DNA of 64,000 nt from Pseudomonadales bacterium (GCA_965216795.1 OZ244196.1:1409044-1473043), one strand, 5' to 3'. Shown: positions 36,827 to 47,833, counted from the first letter of the stretch. Numbers and translations are program-made. Notes: a model not told the origin generated them from the letters alone.

Positions 36827-37023
36827 CGTTCTCTCCAGCCTACCATCATTGTTTGGACAAAGGCCGCCGTCATGGGGCCTGCACAGGAGTTGCAATATAT
36901 ACGATTGCCGGCCCAAGCTCCAGCAGCGCACCCTCAAAAAGCGGTTTGATTTTGCTATCGGCGGAGCCGCTACTTTATACTATCCAGTTCGCCACGCATT
37001 TTGTGTTTCCCTGTGAAGTAAAG

Positions 37024-39885
37024 ATGGACAAGATTGCAATCCGCGGTGCCCGCACCCACAACCTGAAAAACATCGACCTCGACCTGCCCCGCGATAGCCT
37101 GATCGTCATCACTGGCCTGTCGGGCTCGGGCAAATCATCACTTGCCTTTGACACACTCTACGCTGAGGGCCAGCGCCGCTATGTCGAGTCGCTTTCGACC
37201 TATGCGCGGCAGTTCCTGTCGCTGATGGAAAAACCCGACGTCGATCATATTGAGGGACTCTCCCCGGCCATTTCCATCGAGCAGAAATCGACATCACACA
37301 ACCCGCGCTCCACCGTTGGCACCATCACCGAAATCTATGACTACCTGCGCCTGCTGTTCGCTCGCGCCGGCACGCCACAATGCCCCGAACACGGAATTGC
37401 CCTGGAAGCCCAAACGGTCAGCCAGATGGTCGACGCCATTCTTGCCCTCCCCGAGGGCAGCAAGCTGATGCTGCTGGCGCCGATCATCAAAGACCGTAAA
37501 GGCGAGCATCTCAAGCTCTTTGATAAACTCAAACAGGAAGGTTATGTCAGGGTACGGGTCGACGGAGAGGTCTACGATATCGACGAAATACCCGCGCTGA
37601 AAAAGAACAACAAACACAGCATCGATGTCGTTATTGACCGCTTCAAGGTGCGCGCGGACCTCAAGCAGCGCATTGCCGATTCACTCGAGACTACGCTCGA
37701 GCTGGCCGAGGGCGTCGCCTGCCTGGCCTTTATCGATGGCGAGCAGGATGACCTGCTGTTCTCGGCCAACTACGCCTGCCCGACCTGTGGCTACAACCTC
37801 AGCGAACTGGAACCTCGCCTGTTTTCATTCAACAACCCGGCTGGTGCCTGTGAAGTCTGCGACGGGCTGGGTATCAAGCAGTATTTCGATATCGACCGCA
37901 TTTTGCTGTACCCCGACTCCAGCTTGTCGGAGGGCGCGATTCGCGGCTGGGACAAGCGCAGCGTCTACTACTTCCATATGCTGACCTCGCTGGCCGACCA
38001 CTACGGTTTCGATATCGACAAGCCGTTCAACAAGCTCAGCAAGAAGCACCGCGAAATCATCCTCTATGGCAGTGATGAAAACATTGTCTTCTCTTACATC
38101 AACGATCGCGGCGATGTTTACAAACGCACCCATCCCTTCGAGGGCATCATCCCGAACATGGAGCGCCGTTATCGCGATACCCAGTCGCAAATGGTGCGCG
38201 ACGAGCTGACCAAATTCATCAGCACCCAGCCGTGCACGCAGTGCGAAGGCTCCCGATTGAAAGAGAGCGCCCGCCATGTGTTCGTCGACAGCAAAAACCT
38301 GCCGTCGCTGACCTGCCTGCCCATTGGCGAGGCGCACGACTACTTCAGTGCGCTAAATCTACCCGGGCGCCGCGGCAAGATCGCCGAGAAGATCGTGAAA
38401 GAAATCTGCGAGCGGCTGGAGTTCCTGGTCGATGTGGGCCTGAACTACCTGACGCTCGATCGCAATGCCGACAGCCTGTCGGGTGGCGAGGCCCAGCGCA
38501 TCCGGCTGGCCAGCCAGATAGGCGCCGGACTGGTAGGCGTGATGTATATTCTCGATGAACCCTCCATTGGTTTGCACCAGCGCGACAACGCGCGGCTATT
38601 GAAAACGCTGAACAAGCTGCGCGACCTGGGCAACACCGTCATCGTCGTAGAGCATGACGAGGATGCGATCCGCAGCGCCGACTATATTGTCGACATCGGC
38701 CCGGGCGCTGGCGTGCACGGCGGCCAGATCGTTGCCAAGGGCTCGTTGAACCAGATCACCCGCGCCAGCAAATCGGTCACCGGCCAGTACCTGTCGGGCA
38801 AGCAATGTATTGCCGTTCCCCAGAGGCGCCACGACATCGAGCCAGACCGGCAGATCGTGTTGCACGGCGCAACCGGCAACAACCTGCGCGATGTCGATAT
38901 CGCCATTCCACTGGGCCTGCTGACCTGTGTGACCGGCGTATCGGGCTCTGGCAAGTCCACGCTGATCAACAATACGCTCTACCCGGCGGCGGCCATCGCA
39001 CTCAATGGCGCCACCACGCTAAAGCCCGCTGCCTATGCCTCGATCGAGGGGCTGGACCAGCTCGACAAGTGTATCGACATCGACCAGAGCCCGATTGGCC
39101 GCACCCCTCGCTCCAACCCGGCCACCTACACCGGCATCTTTACACCGGTCCGTGAACTGTTTGCCGGCACACAGGAGGCGCGGGCTCGCGGTTATGCGCC
39201 CGGCCGCTTCAGTTTTAACGTGAAAGGCGGGCGCTGCGAGGCCTGCCAGGGCGATGGCGTCACCAAAGTAGAAATGCACTTTTTGCCAGATATCTATGTG
39301 CCCTGCGATGTCTGTAAGGGCAAACGCTATAACCGGGAGACGCTCGAGATTACCTACAAGGGAAAGAATATTTCAGAAGTTCTCGAGATGACGGCCGAAG
39401 ATGCGCTGCAGTTTTTCTCGGCGATTCCCAGTGTGGCGAAGAAGCTGCAAACGCTCATGGATGTTGGCCTGAGCTATATTCGACTCGGCCAAGCGGCGAC
39501 AACCCTGTCGGGCGGCGAGGCACAGCGGGTCAAACTGGCCAAAGAACTGTCGAAACGCGATACTGGCCGCACCCTGTACATTCTCGATGAACCAACCACA
39601 GGCCTGCACTTTGCCGATATCGCCCAGCTACTGAGCGTGCTACATCAACTGCGCGATCGCGGTAATACCATTGTGATCATCGAACACAATCTCGACGTCA
39701 TCAAAACTGCTGACTGGATCATCGACCTGGGCCCGGAAGGTGGCAGTGGTGGCGGCCAGATTATTGCCGAGGGGACGCCCGAGGCGGTCGCCAAGATCAA
39801 GGCCTCACATACGGGCCGGTTTTTGAAACCCATGCTGGCCACACCGAAAAAAGCCAAACGTCGCGCCAGGGCTGAAACCGCCTAG
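37024..39885 (+). CDS. uvrA: Excinuclease ABC subunit A
   Basis: Start trimmed to [24 protein letters not shown]. Two ABC modules ([18 protein letters not shown]) and zinc-finger CxxC pairs. Divergent from ssb, as in many gammaproteobacteria. Confidence 0.97.
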
Positions 39886-39942: not shown

Positions 39943-40950
39943 TCAGTTCCCGCCCCATACGAAAGCGTCGATCGAGTAGTAGGGCTCCTGGTTATAGCCA
40001 CGCCACATGTGCTTGGTGTAGCCTTTCCAGTCATTGTACCCCTGCGGCTCCCAGTAAAAGACGCCCAGGCCTCCGCGAGCGCGTGTCTGGTTCAAGGTTT
40101 CAAGCAGCGCATCGTAGGCGTACTGGACCGGCTCTGCATTCATACCAAACTCCACCAGCATGACATCCTTATTGTATTTTTGCTTGAGATAGCTAAGGTT
40201 GTCGGCATAGCTTGCGACGCCGTGGCCCCAATCCTGGTACGGATAGAGAGACAAGCCGATAATATCAAATATCGCGCCCTGACTTGCCAGGCCATCCAGA
40301 TTGGTCTCTAGTAATGCGCGATGGTCCCCACGCGGCAGGTGTACGATCGTCTTCACATCGGGGAATATCTCTTTTGCTCCCCGCCCTGCCTCGGTAATAA
40401 TTTTGGCGTAGTTGTAGTAGCCATTGACAGATACCTGGCCAATCGGCCAGAGCAGCCCATCGCTGGTTTCGTTACCAATCTGTACCCAGGTGGGCGTAAC
40501 GCCAGCATTGGCCAGGTGCGCAAGCGTTGCCCTGACATGCCATTTGGCAAGCAACCACACGGAGGATCCCCAGGCTTCCCAGCCCGCCGGCGGTGTCTGC
40601 TTTGCAGGGTCGGCAAATGAATCGCTGAAATGGAAGGCTATCATGACCTGCATGCCGGCATCTCGCGCATAGCTCGCCTTGGTAACCACATCAGCGATGT
40701 TGCTCCAGCCGTCAGACGGATTCACAAACACGCGCAGTCGCACAGCGTTCATCGAATGGTCTTTCAGGATATCGTGCAATGGCTTTGTATAGCCGTAGTC
40801 ATCCTTCCAGCTATAACCGGCTGCCTCCTGCTCGGTTTGCCAGCTGACGTCAGCACCCTTGATAAAGCCCTGCGATACAGCTGGCATCGATAGTGGAAGA
40901 ACGACCACCGCCACCAGTACAACAAAAACCTGCTTTAATAAACTGCCCAT
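39943..40950 (-). CDS. Arabinogalactan endo-beta-1,4-galactanase (GH53), secreted
   Basis: Start trimmed to MGSLLKQVFVVLVAVVVLPLSMPAVSQG (signal peptide). KGADVSW, NAVRLRVF, acid/base WVQIGNE, nucleophile VMLVEFG. Confidence 0.8.
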   Translation of the reverse strand: MGSLLKQVFVVLVAVVVLPLSMPAVSQGFIKGADVSWQTEQEAAGYSWKDDYGYTKPLHDILKDHSMNAVRLRVFVNPSDGWSNIADVVTKASYARDAGMQVMIAFHFSDSFADPAKQTPPAGWEAWGSSVWLLAKWHVRATLAHLANAGVTPTWVQIGNETSDGLLWPIGQVSVNGYYNYAKIITEAGRGAKEIFPDVKTIVHLPRGDHRALLETNLDGLASQGAIFDIIGLSLYPYQDWGHGVASYADNLSYLKQKYNKDVMLVEFGMNAEPVQYAYDALLETLNQTRARGGLGVFYWEPQGYNDWKGYTKHMWRGYNQEPYYSIDAFVWGGN

Positions 40951-41073
40951 GTCGTTCACGCTAACCTCTCTCGAGCGTTCGCACCGCGCGAATATCGGCG
41001 CCCAGCCCTCCACAATACTTCGACTCTGTTTTTATAGCTTCTATACTATATTTTTTTCAAGCAAACCAAAGAC

Positions 41074-42504
41074 CTATCGCTTCTTCAACGCCTTGACTTG
41101 TTTCTGCAATTCTGCAATCTGCGCGGCCTGGGTATCGAGCTGGTCTTGCTGACTCATCGTGTACAGGAAAAGCTCCTCGATCTTGGTCAAAAATGCTACG
41201 AACAGATCGGGCAGGTTGACGCCTTTCAGGCTCTGCACATCAGCCTCGGATGGAACGCCTGGCAAATGCTTGTTCTTCTTCACAAACGCTTCGACTTCAG
41301 CGAGGCTTTGCAACTTATAGTCAGGCTCAAAGACCTTATCGGCCCACTCGGTGATACCGACCAGCACGATATCCTCGGTAACAATGCCTCTCTCGACCCA
41401 TAGCAGGTAGTCGGCTATCGCCTCACTGTAATCAAACGCATGCAGCTGGCCATCTCGAGGACCGATGTGCATTGATCCACCGAGGGTCAACGTCACGTCA
41501 TCGACTTTGGTATCGGTATTGATGGACATCTGGATCGGGCCGGAATTTTCGTTTATCGTCACGTCATTGGCCGATAACCGAATCGTTGTATCTGAAGCCG
41601 AGCTTGCACTGAGCTGCGAGTTCGAAAAACCGAACGACAGATACTCGTGGCTCTGCGGGGAAAAGGCGAAGGGATTGGCATAATCGGGCTGCCATACGGT
41701 CGCGATCGCGTAGGTAGCAGGCATATTCTCGTGTGACCTGAAACTTGTACCGTATACGGGCGCATCGACTGTCGGCATATCGACCGCATAGGCAAAGGCA
41801 TCACCGGCGCCGTCACTGGCGGAGGAGATCTCAAAATCGTGGTCAGTTATTTGCGTGCCGATTGCCAGGTACCCGTCGATGGCGACCGCGTCACCAAATA
41901 CATGCCGACCGTCAACATCGTTGCCATCCCTGTCCGCAATGTTGTAGCCATAGGAATTATCTGACTGGTAGCCTCCCGATGTTTGCCCCCAGAAGACGAT
42001 CTCGTCTGAAATGGATAGTTTTGCGGCGTTGCTGTGCCCACCAAACAGATTCAGGTCACCCTTCACATCAACTTCAACCTTGCCATAACCATATGTGGGA
42101 AACCAGAAATGACCCGGCGCAGGGTAAATATCAATGACCGGAAACTTTTCGCAGTTATCGCCCGTCAACTTTGTCGCGTCCAATTTTCTGGACTCGGAAG
42201 AAGAATACTCGAAATCACAATCAGAAGCCGTATTGTAAAGACCTATTGAAACATCGGCCTGCGTGGAACTTGGCTGATAATCAGAAAAGTTATGCGGACC
42301 ATACAAGTGGGAGGAATGCCGACCCGCGAAATAGGGATTAAATATATCAAACTCATAGGTAGACGCATTGGAAGATACCTGTGCGTTCGCTGCAGCTGCA
42401 GCGCAATACAGGGAAACTCCCAGCAGAGAAGCCCCCATGGGCTTCCTCCACCTGGCGCCAGTCAACGCACTTGCAATACTGTATGTACTGTATGAATATT
42501 TCAT
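41074..42504 (-). CDS. Secreted hypothetical protein with a Tyr/Gly/Asp-rich beta-rich body and a C-terminal conserved module plus coiled coil
   Basis: I chose the start at 42504 (GAGG Shine-Dalgarno 8 nt upstream); the track ORF extends to 42585. Signal peptide ...MGASLLGVSLYCAAAAANA/QV. C-terminus WADKVFEPDYKLQSLAEVEAFVKKNKHLPGVPSEADV...KIEELFLYTMSQQDQLDTQAAQIAELQKQVKALKKR. Confidence 0.7.
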   Translation of the reverse strand: MKYSYSTYSIASALTGARWRKPMGASLLGVSLYCAAAAANAQVSSNASTYEFDIFNPYFAGRHSSHLYGPHNFSDYQPSSTQADVSIGLYNTASDCDFEYSSSESRKLDATKLTGDNCEKFPVIDIYPAPGHFWFPTYGYGKVEVDVKGDLNLFGGHSNAAKLSISDEIVFWGQTSGGYQSDNSYGYNIADRDGNDVDGRHVFGDAVAIDGYLAIGTQITDHDFEISSASDGAGDAFAYAVDMPTVDAPVYGTSFRSHENMPATYAIATVWQPDYANPFAFSPQSHEYLSFGFSNSQLSASSASDTTIRLSANDVTINENSGPIQMSINTDTKVDDVTLTLGGSMHIGPRDGQLHAFDYSEAIADYLLWVERGIVTEDIVLVGITEWADKVFEPDYKLQSLAEVEAFVKKNKHLPGVPSEADVQSLKGVNLPDLFVAFLTKIEELFLYTMSQQDQLDTQAAQIAELQKQVKALKKR

Positions 42505-42694
42505 AACAAGAACCTCATTTTTACGCGTCAGCTCGCGCACCGAACAATCGGGCACTGACGGATCTTTACAGGTGTATTTTTTCATGTAAGTACCATGGAC
42601 CTTCTGCCGTAATCGTTCACAAACCCGGCAAACCTTTTCAGTAATACTTTGCTAAAGCAGCCGCATTCTTCAGTTGACAAGCCTGTGCACACAC

Positions 42695-45600
42695 TCAAAG
42701 CCCATTGCCGCTGGAGAAGACAGCTCGCGTTGCGATCTCAACCTCTGAGGAGGTCCAATCTGCAACGTTGTAGGCCGTCAGTATGCCCGCGCTTCCGGCA
42801 TTAACGCCGTAGTTGGACACATCGACAATGAGCTTCCTGCCTGTATTCAGGTCAGCCCAGAACTGCATGCGACGCTTTTCATCATCAGACATCAGTCTCA
42901 GTAGTATTTCCTGGTCGAGCGGTTCGGCGTTACCGGCAAACGCACCACCGACAGGATCGAAGAATGCCTCCATATCGTAGAAAGCCTTGATGTTGGTACG
43001 TACACGGTAGGCCTCCGTGTCTGTGAGAGAGACCCAGGGCAGACGCAGGGTCCACTCTTCATTGATCACCGGCGCAACCCTGAAACCCGACGGATCATTC
43101 ATCGGGTCAGGAAACCGTTGCGATTGCGCAAACGCCATATCAAGCGCAGCGATAACGCCAGGGTCGGTCACGCCCGCAGTCGCTATCACCTGGTTTGCCA
43201 TCACATCTGACGGATAGGGCGTTTCCGAGTAGTGACGTATCCAGTACGAGGGCATCCAGCTGCTGGCAATACCGTTTGCACCCTGCGCCTGGTTCGATAG
43301 AAATTGTGTAACCACTGCGTCCTGGGCCACCGGCACCGTGTTGCCTGTCGTTGGATCCTCCATATCCCAACGATATTGCCCCGAATAGTTTTGAGAGGCC
43401 TCAAACCGATTGATGAGGTTCACGCCATTCGCAGCGGGCGGATCAGCCCTTAACCCATCGATGTACGTGTATTTGCTGAAGACGTCGACAACCTCATAGG
43501 CACGCAGGTTGGTGTTCGCACCGACACCCAACCAGGCTCTCTCCTCTGCCGTAAGATCAGACACCTCGATCAAGCCTTCACAAACATCACAACCGGCGTT
43601 CCTAACGCTCACCCGATAGAACATCTGCGAAGTATCTCGATAGGTCACCCTGAGTTCATAGTCGCCCGGTACGTCCCAGGTATACTCGAAGTTGTTACCC
43701 CATGCAGTGTGATCGGGTGTCGTCACAGGCGTACCGCTTGTCGCGATCCTGTAGACTTCAAACTTCAGGTCCTGCACCTGTTCGTCATAATCGACGCGCT
43801 TCGCCTGCAATCGCTCTGAGATGTACCACTCGGTACCGTCGTGCACGAACGTGTGAGGGTCGCTATCCAGCACGCCCCAATTGGTCTGGTCACCTGTGCG
43901 GAAGACATACTCGCGGACGTACCGAGATGCGTGTCGACCAGACCGCGCAAAGGTCTGGATGTCTTGAGGCCGGCTATCAAAGTAGTCGTTCAGGTAAATA
44001 TACGCACCATCGCCGCGGCCCTCCGAGAGAATATTGTTTTCACCTATAAAGCGAACACTGACGTCGAGAATCTCCTTTCCGGCGACGGGGATCCATTCAT
44101 TCGCAGCATTTTGGTAATAGGCAGTCAGGTCATAGTAGCCCCAGCCCTTAAAGTCGAATTCGGCAGAAAAATCTCCGGTAAAACTTTCTGCAGATACAAT
44201 ACCGTCGGGCATTTCCACTACGGTGCGCTCGATAACACCCAGGTGGTTCTCGTAAACGAGCTCCAGCTTGTACGGGTAATGGCCTTGCTCATTGAAAGGC
44301 ACGCCATGCAGCGTGTAGGTCACGTCTTCTTCATACAACGCTATGTGGTCCGGGCCACTGATGCTGCCGTAGAAACCCAGGCTGTTTTCCAGCCTGGGCT
44401 CCGCAGATATGGCCAGGTCCAGCACCCGAGAGCCCTGGGTGATCGTGATTTGGCCTGGCACGGCAGTCCAACCACTATCTGTGCCCGTCGGACTCATCGG
44501 GCCGACACCAAGTGCCTGGTACTCGTACCCCCTGTAAAGAGGAACATTGGTGGTGCCAAAATCCGCCCAGGAACGATGGGCCTGGTATGCGGAGATCATC
44601 TCATTGAGTGATGATTCACCCTCGGCGCCCGGCACATCTTTCCAGACCTCATAACCGTCACTCAACCTGAACTTCAATACCCCGCCACTACTTGTCGGAA
44701 TCGTAACCAGTTCGTCCGGATCCAGGCCCGCGATATACCTGGGTGTGGGGTTAGAACCAGCGCCGCCGTAGACGTAGGTATCACCGTAATTGCTGGCAAA
44801 TCCGTTTAGCAGGCTCCAATTTCGCCAGTTATGCAACAGCTCCATATTCAAACCCTCTCGCTGGCTATTGCGCTGGGTATTGGTTGCTGTGACCAGCTGC
44901 GGATGGTCACAGGGGTTGTAACCGAGATTGCGCAAGTTGCCGTCACGAAATTTTGTCTTGCACCAGGCGTACAAAGGGCCCGCGTCAGCGGTAGCGCGCA
45001 TCGGCAACTTCGGCACCCACGTCACCTCAACATGATTGGCGCCAGACTGCTCCAACTCCGGATAGCGCGGCTGCCAACCATTCCCGGTCGGCCAGGGCCG
45101 GATAACCGTCCCATGGACCTGGGAATCAAACCCCAGGAAAGGCGTATACCCACCAAAATCGATACTGGGGTTGACATGATAGAAGGACTCACCGGCAAAC
45201 CGCTGTATCGTCAGGTCGTGCAATCCGGAGATAGATAAATTTTCGCCAGGAACGTCGGTGGTCGCGATACGCACTGTCAAGGGCTCGCCCACGGGAATAC
45301 GTAAGCCCGAAAGGTCTTTTTCAAGATCACTGCTCTCCTGGTAAGAGATATGCCTGATAGTGTGCCCGCCACTGAGCAGGGTAACGCTGGTGTCCGGCGT
45401 GCCGACAATGCCCGCATCGGAACTTGTTATCACGCCAACACCAGGAATGTGTGCTTCTATGAAAGTTGCATCAGTAATCGCTATTTCTACGGTTACCGGT
45501 ATGATAAGGTCGTCTCGGTCAAGCCTGTCGCAGTAAAATTCATGCCAGAATTCGTCTTGATACTGTTCGCAGTTTCGACCAAAAACAGTGCACTCGCGTC

Positions 45601-46390
45601 TCGCCAGCCCCTCGGGCGAATGCGGGTAATCGGGGTCGAGATTACTGCTGCGGAAAATATCTATGGCGATGTTACCGAGGTATTTCCCCCAGTTTAGAAG
45701 CCCAAAAGCTACACGATTGTAGAAGTGACTGCAGTATTCGCTAACCTCTTCTGAATAGTTCAGGTCGGTCGTAACACCACCATTTTCGGCCCAGCCCACA
45801 CTGTTGTCGGTGTGTAAATTCAACGCCCACCTACCCCTCCATTTTTGCTGCGGGGTGTCAAAGTTGTACCAGTTCATCAGCTGCTTGGTTTCTCTTGAAT
45901 CCACATTGACATGACCCGTCAGAAAGGAGGGAACGGCACCCAGATCGAAATCACTGGTACCGGTGGCCTGGAACCAGGTCTGTGAAAGCATGTAACCTTG
46001 CTGCTCCGGCTCACTGGCCTCATGATCCAGGTAAGCCCAGTACAAAATGCGCTGCCGATTATCCTCAAACCCCTCGGCCGCTGCGGTATATACCCTCACA
46101 TCGATACGCGACACCCCTGGATTCCAGAAATTCAGCCCTACTATCCCGGGATTCATAAAATCAGTCAGCAATTCGGATGCGTTCACACTCCTATTAAGAC
46201 GGTAGTGCTCATCTGCGTTGATCTGCCCGGGAATTGGATTGATGATACCGTTGTTTATCTGCCCTGGAACTGGATTGACGAGACCGACACTCGAAACCGC
46301 CGAAGCCCCCACTGGCGGCAACAAAAAGGCAAGGGCAACCACCAGGGATATCGTCAAATGGTACAGTGAATACTGATATGTCTTATTCAT
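42695..46390 (-). CDS. Large secreted hypothetical protein (1231 aa), no recognisable family
   Basis: A single uninterrupted 3.7-kb ORF. Signal peptide MNKTYQYSLYHLTISLVVALAFLLPPVGASA/VS. Trp/Tyr/Asp/Asn-rich. A few beta-sandwich-like strands (YTWDVPGDYELRVTYRD). Confidence 0.8.
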   Translation of the reverse strand: MNKTYQYSLYHLTISLVVALAFLLPPVGASAVSSVGLVNPVPGQINNGIINPIPGQINADEHYRLNRSVNASELLTDFMNPGIVGLNFWNPGVSRIDVRVYTAAAEGFEDNRQRILYWAYLDHEASEPEQQGYMLSQTWFQATGTSDFDLGAVPSFLTGHVNVDSRETKQLMNWYNFDTPQQKWRGRWALNLHTDNSVGWAENGGVTTDLNYSEEVSEYCSHFYNRVAFGLLNWGKYLGNIAIDIFRSSNLDPDYPHSPEGLARRECTVFGRNCEQYQDEFWHEFYCDRLDRDDLIIPVTVEIAITDATFIEAHIPGVGVITSSDAGIVGTPDTSVTLLSGGHTIRHISYQESSDLEKDLSGLRIPVGEPLTVRIATTDVPGENLSISGLHDLTIQRFAGESFYHVNPSIDFGGYTPFLGFDSQVHGTVIRPWPTGNGWQPRYPELEQSGANHVEVTWVPKLPMRATADAGPLYAWCKTKFRDGNLRNLGYNPCDHPQLVTATNTQRNSQREGLNMELLHNWRNWSLLNGFASNYGDTYVYGGAGSNPTPRYIAGLDPDELVTIPTSSGGVLKFRLSDGYEVWKDVPGAEGESSLNEMISAYQAHRSWADFGTTNVPLYRGYEYQALGVGPMSPTGTDSGWTAVPGQITITQGSRVLDLAISAEPRLENSLGFYGSISGPDHIALYEEDVTYTLHGVPFNEQGHYPYKLELVYENHLGVIERTVVEMPDGIVSAESFTGDFSAEFDFKGWGYYDLTAYYQNAANEWIPVAGKEILDVSVRFIGENNILSEGRGDGAYIYLNDYFDSRPQDIQTFARSGRHASRYVREYVFRTGDQTNWGVLDSDPHTFVHDGTEWYISERLQAKRVDYDEQVQDLKFEVYRIATSGTPVTTPDHTAWGNNFEYTWDVPGDYELRVTYRDTSQMFYRVSVRNAGCDVCEGLIEVSDLTAEERAWLGVGANTNLRAYEVVDVFSKYTYIDGLRADPPAANGVNLINRFEASQNYSGQYRWDMEDPTTGNTVPVAQDAVVTQFLSNQAQGANGIASSWMPSYWIRHYSETPYPSDVMANQVIATAGVTDPGVIAALDMAFAQSQRFPDPMNDPSGFRVAPVINEEWTLRLPWVSLTDTEAYRVRTNIKAFYDMEAFFDPVGGAFAGNAEPLDQEILLRLMSDDEKRRMQFWADLNTGRKLIVDVSNYGVNAGSAGILTAYNVADWTSSEVEIATRAVFSSGNGL
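46211..46282 (-). repeat. Tandem 36-nt (12-aa) duplication inside the 1231-aa gene
   Basis: Read directly from the DNA: LVNPVPGQINNG followed by IINPIPGQINAD, immediately after the signal peptide. Confidence 0.8.
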
Positions 46391-46933
46391 GGATCTACCA
46401 CCCAGATCTCAGTCACGCCAGCCTGCAGTAGCGCGAACAACGTTGATCAAACGACGCCGGTCACCCGGCTCGAAACACCCGACTACAACCCAAGGAGCCG
46501 CAGCCACCCAAACTTCACATAATCAATAGACAGGCCGTCTTTTCTAGAGAAGCAATCAAGCGGAACCGGATGCCGGACTCACACCAGAAGCTTCAACAAC
46601 GGCGGAAAAAAGTACACTTCAATTAGCTAGTTGCAGATTCATACACGCCCGGTTTAGTCGTACGGATATTTTTAGATTATTAGCTTCCGTTATCGGTGCG
46701 AGGCCATGAAGGTTAACCGGGTCTCACCGACATCCACTACCAATATGCCGTCTAGCAAAATCGTGGGCACCTACATCCGTGTAGAATCTATCTGGATACT
46801 GCATTTCTTTTTATGATATATAATATTTATAGAAAAGCAACCATTTTTTTGTGTTCTCGATCCTTGAAAGTAGTTAAGGGTGGTTCACGAGCTGAAAGCG
46901 CAGCCAGCGGCGTACTCCCCGCGACCGTGGCTC

Positions 46934-47833
46934 TCAGCCTGCACGCAGCACGTCTATGAGTGCGCGCACGGCCAATGGCGCAAGATCGCCATAAGCATGG
47001 ACCGCACAAACCGCCGTCGTCCGTGGCGCGTAGCGGGGCAGCAGCAGCACCAGCTCACCATCATCCACCCTCGATTGCACGTAATGAGGCGGGACTGTCG
47101 CAAACCCCACGTCGGTCCACATCAGGGTCTCAACGGCACCCATCGTATTCGCGACCGCGGCAGGCTTCAGCGTGATTGTTCTACGCTCACCACCCGGCCC
47201 ATGCAGCAGGTAAGAGGCGTCGGGCAGCTCCCAGGCATGCGCAACATAGGGCCAACTGGCCACCTCGTCGACGTCGTGAATGCTGGCCTCACTCGCGCCC
47301 TGGCTGGCGAGAAACGCAGGTGTCGCATAAAAAAACCCGGCGACTTCACCCACCCGCACGGCTTGATAACCGCCGTATTTGACGGGCGCCACGCACAGCG
47401 CGATGTCGATCTGGTGCTCGATCAGGTCCACCTGCTCATCGTCGACAATGATTTCCGGCTGCAGTAATGGGTAGCGCTTCAACAGTTGCGCCAGTGCCGG
47501 CGCGACCAGCTCGTCGAACACGGCCTGCGGCGCCAATACCCGCAGAATACCCGCTGGCGTTGCAAGCTGCTCACTGACTTCTTCCAACGCAATGGTCGAT
47601 AAATCACGCAGGGAAACACAGCGCATGAAGAACTGCTCACCCACAGGTGTCAGGCTCTGGCGACGGGTTGATCGTGCAAGCAATCGGGTACCCAGGTCGG
47701 CCTCAAGCCCACGCAAATGCTCACCAACGACCGAACGCCCTACCCCCAGCGCTTCGGCCGCCGCTGTTATCGATCCCGCCTCAACCACGGCAATAAATGC
47801 CTTGATACGCGTTGCCAGTAATTCGATTTGCAC
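46934..47833 (-). CDS. LysR family transcriptional regulator
   Basis: N-terminal wHTH FIAVVEAGSITAAAEALGVGRSVVGEHLRGLE. 299 aa. Divergent from the hydrolase gene at 48027. Confidence 0.9.
   Translation of the reverse strand: MQIELLATRIKAFIAVVEAGSITAAAEALGVGRSVVGEHLRGLEADLGTRLLARSTRRQSLTPVGEQFFMRCVSLRDLSTIALEEVSEQLATPAGILRVLAPQAVFDELVAPALAQLLKRYPLLQPEIIVDDEQVDLIEHQIDIALCVAPVKYGGYQAVRVGEVAGFFYATPAFLASQGASEASIHDVDEVASWPYVAHAWELPDASYLLHGPGGERRTITLKPAAVANTMGAVETLMWTDVGFATVPPHYVQSRVDDGELVLLLPRYAPRTTAVCAVHAYGDLAPLAVRALIDVLRAG

Follow-up and report, generated by a model that had tools for sequence, protein, structure and literature searches.

The 64,000-nucleotide stretch of DNA from a Pseudomonadales bacterium analysed here (GCA_965216795.1 OZ244196.1:1409044-1473043; the window, in what follows) carries on its minus strand an open reading frame (ORF) at 42695..46390, with an ATG start, encoding a protein of 1231 amino acids and about 130 kDa whose export by the Sec system is firmly supported. 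A first-pass annotation, made from the DNA alone, had singled out this ORF, and translation returns it as described. Along the minus strand, the gene of a LysR-family regulator (46934-47833) is followed by a gap of 543 bp and then by three genes: that of the 1231-aa protein, called the core gene after the conserved portion of its product; that of a fibre-like partner, listed with 503 aa (41074..42585); and that of a GH53 endo-beta-1,4-galactanase (39943..41013; Pfam PF07745, E 1.5e-66), which would be the last gene of a putative three-gene operon. All three products have signal peptides. On the evidence of homology, the 1231-aa protein is not an orphan, but a member of a rare, mainly Bacteroidota family without prior description. 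The first-pass annotation had overlooked that the family is mainly type IX secretion system (T9SS) cargo of Bacteroidota, the copy studied here being without the secretion tail, that the 503-aa partner is conserved and that the core is limited to residues ~295-1196.

The assertion that the protein has no recognisable family holds for the curated libraries and fails beyond them. Its best Pfam match is PKD_4 at residues 895-922 (E 0.063, 13.8 bits), which is sub-threshold against a gathering cut-off of 27 bits, and nothing significant was returned by NCBIfam, PHROGs or PDB sequences. PF07745, the GH53 TIM-barrel with its two catalytic Glu, found no match in it even at E<=10, and Pfam matches to A2M/MG, SusE, autotransporter, RTX or cadherin families are likewise absent; an autotransporter, RTX or cadherin identity is rejected on this ground, in line with the first-pass annotation, which had seen no such hallmarks. 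A word-index homology search with the protein and alignment A1 as queries returned the query alone, probably because the T9SS tail and GH53 regions swamped the candidate words. An exhaustive HMMER scan of 1.84 billion cluster representatives retrieved 102 proteins, one being the query itself; E is <1e-30 for 62 of the 102, and the 101 homologues align to query residues ~295-1196 (42803..45508, minus strand) at 27-37% identity. The length range given for these homologues is 1100-4457 aa, and 71 of the 101 representatives have at least 1000 aa.

This family is thinly populated. The 1231-aa sequence is an exact match to a singleton cluster, no close relatives of it were found by scan in GTDB genomes and JGI metagenomes, and sampled members of the family are singletons at 90% identity, only one of the ten having a source name, 'hypothetical protein'. 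Twenty GTDB loci contain the family, 19 with a full-length relative and one (L020) with a 629-bp fragment. Most are from Bacteroidota (Cyclobacteriaceae, Flavicella, Alistipes, Parabacteroides segnis, Pseudarcicella hirudinis, Sphingobacterium deserti and Marinoscillum), the remainder being three metagenome-assembled genomes (MAGs) of Gammaproteobacteria and one of Opitutales. The phylogenetic survey that the first-pass annotation had recommended thus portrays mainly Bacteroidota T9SS cargo, with outliers in Gammaproteobacteria and Opitutales. The core family is absent from IMG/VR viral contigs, a phage-encoded origin of the 1231-aa protein is rejected, and a literature search found no paper describing either the core family or the partner domain.

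The closest homologue, in locus L001 from a Gammaproteobacteria MAG, is 42% identical across the core; the gene upstream of it (L001 1-510) ends in PKD-like repeats and a GGGGS...hydrophobic...RR tail resembling a GlyGly-CTERM/rhombosortase-type sorting signal. Homologues in two gammaproteobacterial MAGs (L002 8684-12610 and L005 9014-12844) have an N-terminal domain of ~400 aa that is absent from the 1231-aa protein and contains a long Gly/Ala-rich hydrophobic segment, possibly membrane-embedded. In the Opitutales MAG (L009 8645-16917), core-homologous sequence is distributed over at least two of three consecutive ORFs on the same strand, a split that could represent a pseudogene, frameshifts or assembly errors.

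An AlphaFold2 model was built from a 45-sequence alignment, domain borders being taken from the DSSP assignment of the model. The full model has a predicted template modelling score (pTM) of 0.74 and a predicted local distance difference test score (pLDDT) mostly of 85-95 at mature residues 265-1165, while the unique N-terminal 263 residues are unreliable. As modelled, the core is a compact assembly of immunoglobulin (Ig)/PKD-like beta-sandwiches around two non-Ig domains. It begins with an Ig-like beta-strand region (residues 296-407; 45170..45505, minus strand) leading into an irregular alpha+beta domain (residues 408-646; 44453..45169), which holds an invariant polar cluster with the motifs PFLGFDSQVHG, QRNxQxEGLNM, GxDxDE and GYEIQD, as seen in alignments A1, A5 and A7. 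An Ig-like beta-sandwich follows (residues 647-784; 44039..44452), containing VTYTLHGVPF...KLELVYEN and matching antibody V domains, fn3 and superoxide reductase in Foldseek with probability 1.0. Next is a PKD-like beta-sandwich (residues 813-931; 43598..43954), which contains YTWDVPGDYELRVTYRD and the sub-threshold PKD_4 match, six homologues also giving weak PKD matches. The last is an alpha/beta domain (residues 940-1196; 42803..43573) with the motifs DGxRA, NRF, RHYS, EPWQxRLPW, RTNIK and GAFSG. The first-pass annotation had guessed at PKD/Ig-type sandwich ends, a guess that the model and Foldseek support, the PKD_4 match falling on a strand that it had flagged.

Profile searches of the PDB with the two non-Ig domains (408-646 and 940-1196) found no relatives, and the only matches in PDB sequence and profile searches overall were to the T9SS tails of homologues. 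A sub-model of 384 residues (pLDDT 83.5) gave top 50 listed Foldseek matches in the PDB that are all Ig-type, spanning ~105-170 columns and fitting the beta-sandwich half only. The full model retrieved alpha-2-macroglobulin, complement, CD109 and Ig/fn3 arrays from the PDB; BFVD gave similarly generic Ig/fn3/macroglobulin (MG) arrays. Neither a catalytic fold nor that of a carbohydrate-binding module (CBM) occurs among the listed Foldseek matches, nor in the Pfam or PDB profile searches. The modelling proposed by the first-pass annotation therefore gives a confident core with Ig-type matches only, none catalytic, and its statement that no catalytic signature is visible stands as far as Pfam, NCBIfam and Foldseek reach.

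Conservation within the core is concentrated in polar positions. The invariant or nearly invariant residues are P417, H426, Q506, R507, Q510, E512, D557, D559, E560, E623, D626, Y674 and E773 in the first half and Y828, D842, D844, Y917, R981, R995, W1008, H1053, W1113, R1129, R1131 and N1133 in the second. Strict invariance applies to H426, Q506, R507, Q510, D557, D559, E623, D842, H1053 and R1131, and nearly so to E512 and E560. The conserved polar positions are identical across GH53-fused members, members beside GH123 genes and gammaproteobacterial members, and therefore point to a role that is family-wide rather than substrate-specific. The 1231-aa protein retains 26 of the 27 conserved positions checked and carries the whole motif set of the family (PFLGFDSxVHG, QRNNQxEGLNM, GxDxDE, GYEIQD, DxDPHTF, RHYS, EPWQxRLPW, RTNIK and GAFSG), with the single exception of residue 626 (44513..44515, minus strand), which the alignments show as Asp in almost all homologues and which is Ala here, GYEIQD becoming GYEYQA.

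A clue to function comes from the company that the family keeps. A GH53 domain is fused to the core in 19 of the 101 representatives, or in 18 of the 71 having at least 1000 aa (about a quarter). It usually follows the core on the C-terminal side, and in P0008 it precedes it. Among 30 aligned homologues, 19 have a T9SS C-terminal sorting domain and six a fused GH53. The 25 longer homologues contain GH53 (16), GDPD (5), SASA acetylesterase (2), GH30_2 (2), Laminin_G_3 (2), metallophosphoesterase (1) and F5/8C (1) domains, one of them, P0043, having the order SASA-core-GH53-GDPD. Besides GH53, the GDPD, SASA, GH30_2 and Laminin_G_3 fusions all involve domains that act on glycans or esters. The fusions with GDPD, SASA and other domains hint that the target glycan may be acetylated and/or glycerophosphorylated.

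A census of 62 genes beside homologues, made with Pfam and clustering, extends this association to neighbouring genes: SusC-like proteins (six), SusD (five), separate GH53 (three), GH2 (two to three), GH123 (six to seven, in four loci without GH53), galactokinase (two), regulator domains of the hybrid two-component system (HTCS) type, namely Reg_prop, HisKA and AraC HTH (three), SSF transporters (two) and SGL (four). GH20 and a SusE-like protein are among additional neighbours looked up, and gammaproteobacterial loci contain an IlvD/EDD-family dehydratase and, like SGL, a short-chain dehydrogenase; together these three would constitute a De Ley-Doudoroff-type galactose route. Judged from gene content, the homologue loci are glycan-utilisation clusters, resembling polysaccharide utilisation loci (PULs) or galactose-utilisation clusters, centred on galactose and N-acetylgalactosamine (GalNAc). 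In loci without GH53 (L014, L015, L016, L019 and L021/L060), the pair of core and partner genes stands beside GH123, accompanied by GH20 in L015, and SusC/SusD adjoin the pair in L015, L016, L019 and L021. The GH123 loci suggest a GalNAc-related variant of the system. The first-pass annotation had thought it plausible that the protein works with the downstream GH53; the fusions, the separate GH53 genes nearby and the PUL-like setting agree, and such Rosetta-stone fusions combined with synteny firmly support a functional link between core and GH53.

The link with the fibre-like partner rests on synteny. The partner gene lies between those of the core and GH53. Its product has a signal peptide, the N-terminal part is unique, and the true start is probably an internal Met at residue 28 or 50. 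The 503-aa product has no match in Pfam, NCBIfam, PDB or PHROGs. Its C-terminal ~150 residues (~352-503; 41077..41532, minus strand; alignment A3) form a domain with the motif W[SA]DxVFxxDYxLxSLEEVExFIxxNxHLPG[VI]PS...LLxKIEELTLYxIxQ, beyond which lie a coiled coil and a basic tail. In 14 of 19 GTDB loci and 10 of 14 metagenome loci, a gene with this domain is the immediate same-strand neighbour of the core gene; GH53 is a less frequent neighbour of the core than the partner. Gene order is SusC-SusD-unknown-GH123-core-partner in L021, partner and then a fusion of core, GH53 and C-terminal domain in L025, and partner and core directly after SusD in L016. In L023 and L024, the partner domain pairs with unrelated proteins having T9SS tails. 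A Cyclobacteriaceae MAG (L004 8273-18436) has the whole pair of core and partner tandemly duplicated; the flanking T9SS proteins have the N-terminal domain, of Bacteroidota type, in common with the core.

The N-termini of the partner homologues range from ~100 to 1700 aa, some matching phage tail-fibre PHROGs. A profile of the domain retrieved 2487 proteins, almost all unnamed and a few called bZIP, TMF, SlyX or cell wall anchor. Long ORFs within one-directional gene arrays of 25 IMG/VR contigs also contain the domain, and none of 50,697 deposited phage genomes gave a match to it. With phage tail-fibre and receptor-binding proteins the partner, not the core, has in common the tail-fibre PHROG repeats of its homologues and the presence of its domain in long viral-contig ORFs; it departs from them in lacking matches among deposited phage genomes and in that bacterial copies pair with chromosomal genes for secreted cargo.

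Further features of the 1231-aa protein lie outside the core. The signal peptide (residues 1-31; 46298..46390, minus strand), MNKTYQYSLYHLTISLVVALAFLLPPVGASA|VS, was read from the sequence as the first-pass annotation had proposed: it has Lys3, a hydrophobic core and predicted cleavage after A-S-A of the signal peptidase I (SPI) type, and it contains no lipobox Cys. The tandem 12-aa duplication announced at 46211-46282 is real: LVNPVPGQINNG and IINPIPGQINAD (residues 37-60; 46211..46282, minus strand) are identical at 7 of 12 amino acids and 27 of 36 nucleotides. The region has low pLDDT in the model, and its NP[VI]PGQIN motif, sought in the homologues, is present in none, the closest (L001) showing one NPTPP where the duplicated motif aligns. 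Residues 61-294 (45509..46210, minus strand; pLDDT <50) align with no homologue from the scan and only weakly, at 23%, with the N-terminus of the L001 protein. Lineage-specific sequence makes up the first ~260 residues, the duplicated motif among them, and the conserved unit comprises only residues ~295-1196.

The protein is aromatic/acidic and Lys-poor in composition (Y 5.3%, W 2.6%, D+E 12.7%, K 1.5%), has eight Cys (residues 220, 267, 274, 287, 477, 494, 934 and 937) and shows no internal repeats by self-BLAST. It ends in ...VFSSGNGL, 35 residues past the core, with no Pfam match to Por_Secre_tail (PF18962), the T9SS type A sorting domain; it has no sorting domain, and the first-pass annotation had seen no cell-anchoring C-terminus.

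The AT-rich intergenic region between the LysR gene and the core gene (46391..46933, minus strand) is presumed to be the promoter region; no sigma-70 consensus site on the minus strand and no Rfam match were found there. No terminator-like site was found on the minus strand in the two intergenic gaps of the three-gene unit, which makes an operon plausible. For the last gene, the listed ORF begins at GTG and the signal peptide at Met22 (MGSLLKQVFVVLVAVVVLPLSMPAVSQG), which is probably the real start (nt 40950). The unit converges on uvrA (36853-39885), with ribosomal-protein, rpoA and secY genes a few kb beyond. Over 39943-46390 its GC content is 0.51-0.55 and its GC content at third codon positions (GC3) 0.58-0.66. 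In neighbouring genes GC3 is 0.66-0.74, with the smallest values in the LysR and alpha/beta-hydrolase genes next to the unit. Because GC3 is lower than in the neighbours, core, partner and GH53 probably form a horizontally acquired islet. Repeats, mobile-element signatures and Rfam elements were not found in it, nor do repeats, tRNA-type junctions or Rfam elements mark its borders, and the window contains no other glycan-related genes. By the names in the 90% cluster of rpoA, the host belongs among uncultured Cellvibrionales/Pseudomonadales-like Gammaproteobacteria.

What, then, does the core do? The interpretation in the first-pass annotation is partly supported, by the GH53 link and the sandwich folds, the CAZyme or lectin scaffold that it suggested being a candidate role. 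The explanation that we favour, at a probability of roughly 0.45 and hence short of even odds, is that it constitutes a non-catalytic, substrate-engaging platform. The core, the fibre-like partner and the GH53 galactanase would have arrived by horizontal transfer as a unit with the core gene first, the 1231-aa protein being a gammaproteobacterial member, without secretion tail, of a mainly Bacteroidota family. The core would work with the endo-beta-1,4-galactanase on a galactose-rich and possibly decorated glycan, capturing the polymer and positioning it for GH53 and other enzymes to cut, and would probably be docked to a partner presumed to be trimeric. Binding of glycan, a complex of core and partner and the absence of catalysis are what we infer in this scheme. 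It is favoured because the recognisable folds are all Ig-like, no catalytic fold has emerged and this copy tolerates the loss of Asp626, a loss that is easier to accept in a binding or scaffold role than for a residue of an active site.

Several points weigh on the other side. Across phyla, some 20 charged or polar positions (H, D, E, R, Q) do not vary, a pattern commoner in enzymes than in binding proteins built as Ig arrays. The GH123-type loci L015 and L021 show no recognisable endo-acting enzyme, an absence that may leave room for the core in that role; neither of the non-Ig domains has a structural match, and they may therefore harbour a new catalytic fold; and the pairing of the partner domain with unrelated T9SS cargo indicates that the partner is not specific to the core.

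These points lead to the alternative that comes nearest, namely that the core is itself a carbohydrate-active enzyme of new fold, be it a glycoside hydrolase, lyase or esterase, acting on the decorated galactan of GH53 with both non-Ig domains making up the active site and the Ig-like domains being mere scaffolding. We consider this possible, though with less confidence than the platform. A polar cluster strictly invariant in all genomic contexts would fit an active site, as would the fact that, in multi-enzyme fusions such as P0043, the core is the element that stays constant. Minimal PULs of the type SusC-SusD-unknown-GH123-core-partner, in which no endo-enzyme is known, would acquire one, and domains without PDB relatives are what an undiscovered family would present. 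Set against this, no known catalytic fold or motif has been found, the nearly invariant Asp626 is replaced by Ala in the very protein under study, and several DxD-type motifs might just as well bind structural Ca2+.

A more elaborate version, which we regard as rather unlikely, joins such an enzyme, then the founder of a new CAZy family, with the partner as a trimeric, phage-derived fibre similar to phage receptor-binding proteins, forming a two-protein device for the capture and depolymerisation of glycans. The fibre would recognise a surface polysaccharide, and the targets would be acetylated or glycerophosphorylated polymers of galactose or GalNAc, from bacterial cell walls or algae; a decorated target of this kind is suggested because SASA, GDPD, GH123 and GH20 are associated with the family. 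From the T9SS cargo of Bacteroidota, the module would have passed to Gammaproteobacteria and Verrucomicrobiota.

The fibre-like character of the partner can also be taken to mean that core and partner form a surface adhesin or fibre complex attaching the cell to algal, plant or bacterial surfaces, with GH53 in the secondary role of clearing the matrix locally. The matches of partner N-termini to tail-fibre PHROGs, the occurrence of its C-terminal domain in long tail-fibre-like ORFs of IMG/VR contigs, the largely Ig-like array of the core, as in many adhesins, and the status of many homologues as T9SS cargo are compatible with this proposal. We find it improbable, given that the core family does not extend to viral contigs, that the loci, with their transporters and catabolic genes, are clusters for nutrient acquisition, and that the core is compact (pTM 0.74) and free of internal repeats instead of an extended repeat stalk. 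Least of all do we believe that the core gene, after its horizontal transfer, survives only as a remnant that is decaying or has lost its function: the low GC3 of the island, the lack of close relatives, the loss of Asp626 and that of the T9SS tail present in most homologues might be read in this way, but the frame is intact across 3.7 kb, the signal peptide and 26 of 27 conserved positions are kept, the partner and GH53 genes are equally intact in operon-like order, and the tail is missing also in other gammaproteobacterial and in some Bacteroidota members. A pseudogene is rejected.

Returning to the substrate-engaging platform, its relationship with known systems can be defined by likeness and difference. 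Most homologues resemble multimodular CAZymes secreted by the T9SS of Bacteroidota, in having, after a signal peptide, an extensive accessory region, then GH53, alone or together with GDPD, SASA or GH30, and finally a PF18962 tail, and in residing in PUL-like loci; the 1231-aa protein differs by having neither catalytic module nor T9SS tail and by its gammaproteobacterial host. Surface glycan-binding proteins (SGBPs) of PULs, of the SusE/SusF type as in the galactan PUL of Bacteroides thetaiotaomicron, are lipoproteins and evolve fast. They are similarly Ig-like, multi-domain secreted proteins encoded beside SusC/SusD and PUL enzymes, whereas the core family has SPI-type signals without lipobox and a strict conservation of polar residues across phyla. 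An identity of the 1231-aa protein as lipoprotein SGBP is ruled out by the absent lipobox, and it has no SusE match in Pfam.

CBM61 is the galactan-binding module known from GH53 enzymes. Unlike known CBM, PKD and fn3 modules, the ~900-aa region of the core is a single conserved unit without match in Pfam, NCBIfam or PDB. With PKD and Ig-like proteins the core shares the beta-sandwich fold in the model (Foldseek probability 1.0 to Ig V, fn3 and MG), its PKD score remaining under the threshold. The MG arrays of alpha-2-macroglobulin and complement (4ziq, 7q5z and 9fx3) are comparable in being long series of fn3/MG-like sandwiches, retrieved with E ~1e-8 and probability 0.98-1.0, but TM scores of 0.07-0.10, a root-mean-square deviation >30 Å and the lack of A2M Pfam matches denote a generic resemblance. 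Homology with alpha-2-macroglobulin is rejected on a TM score of ~0.08, on the lack of a large all-helical (thioester) domain in the model and on the lack of a conserved CxEQ. Judged by context, the core, which corresponds to no described family, is probably a new type of module within the secreted machinery for polysaccharide utilisation.

The annotation of loci with GH53 or GH123 is usually considered finished when known enzymes, SusC/SusD and regulators have been assigned, even if they contain a module of ~900 residues that curated libraries do not recognise. The partner domain, with its ~2,500 database matches, some of them misnamed, represents a sizeable annotation gap by itself. A catalytic core would define a new family of enzymes acting on galactan-type glycans; a core that serves as binding platform would represent a new class of substrate-capture protein common to Bacteroidota equipped with the T9SS and Gammaproteobacteria devoid of it. 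Either way, the family offers a defined target with cultured hosts: Sphingobacterium deserti, Pseudarcicella hirudinis and Parabacteroides segnis.

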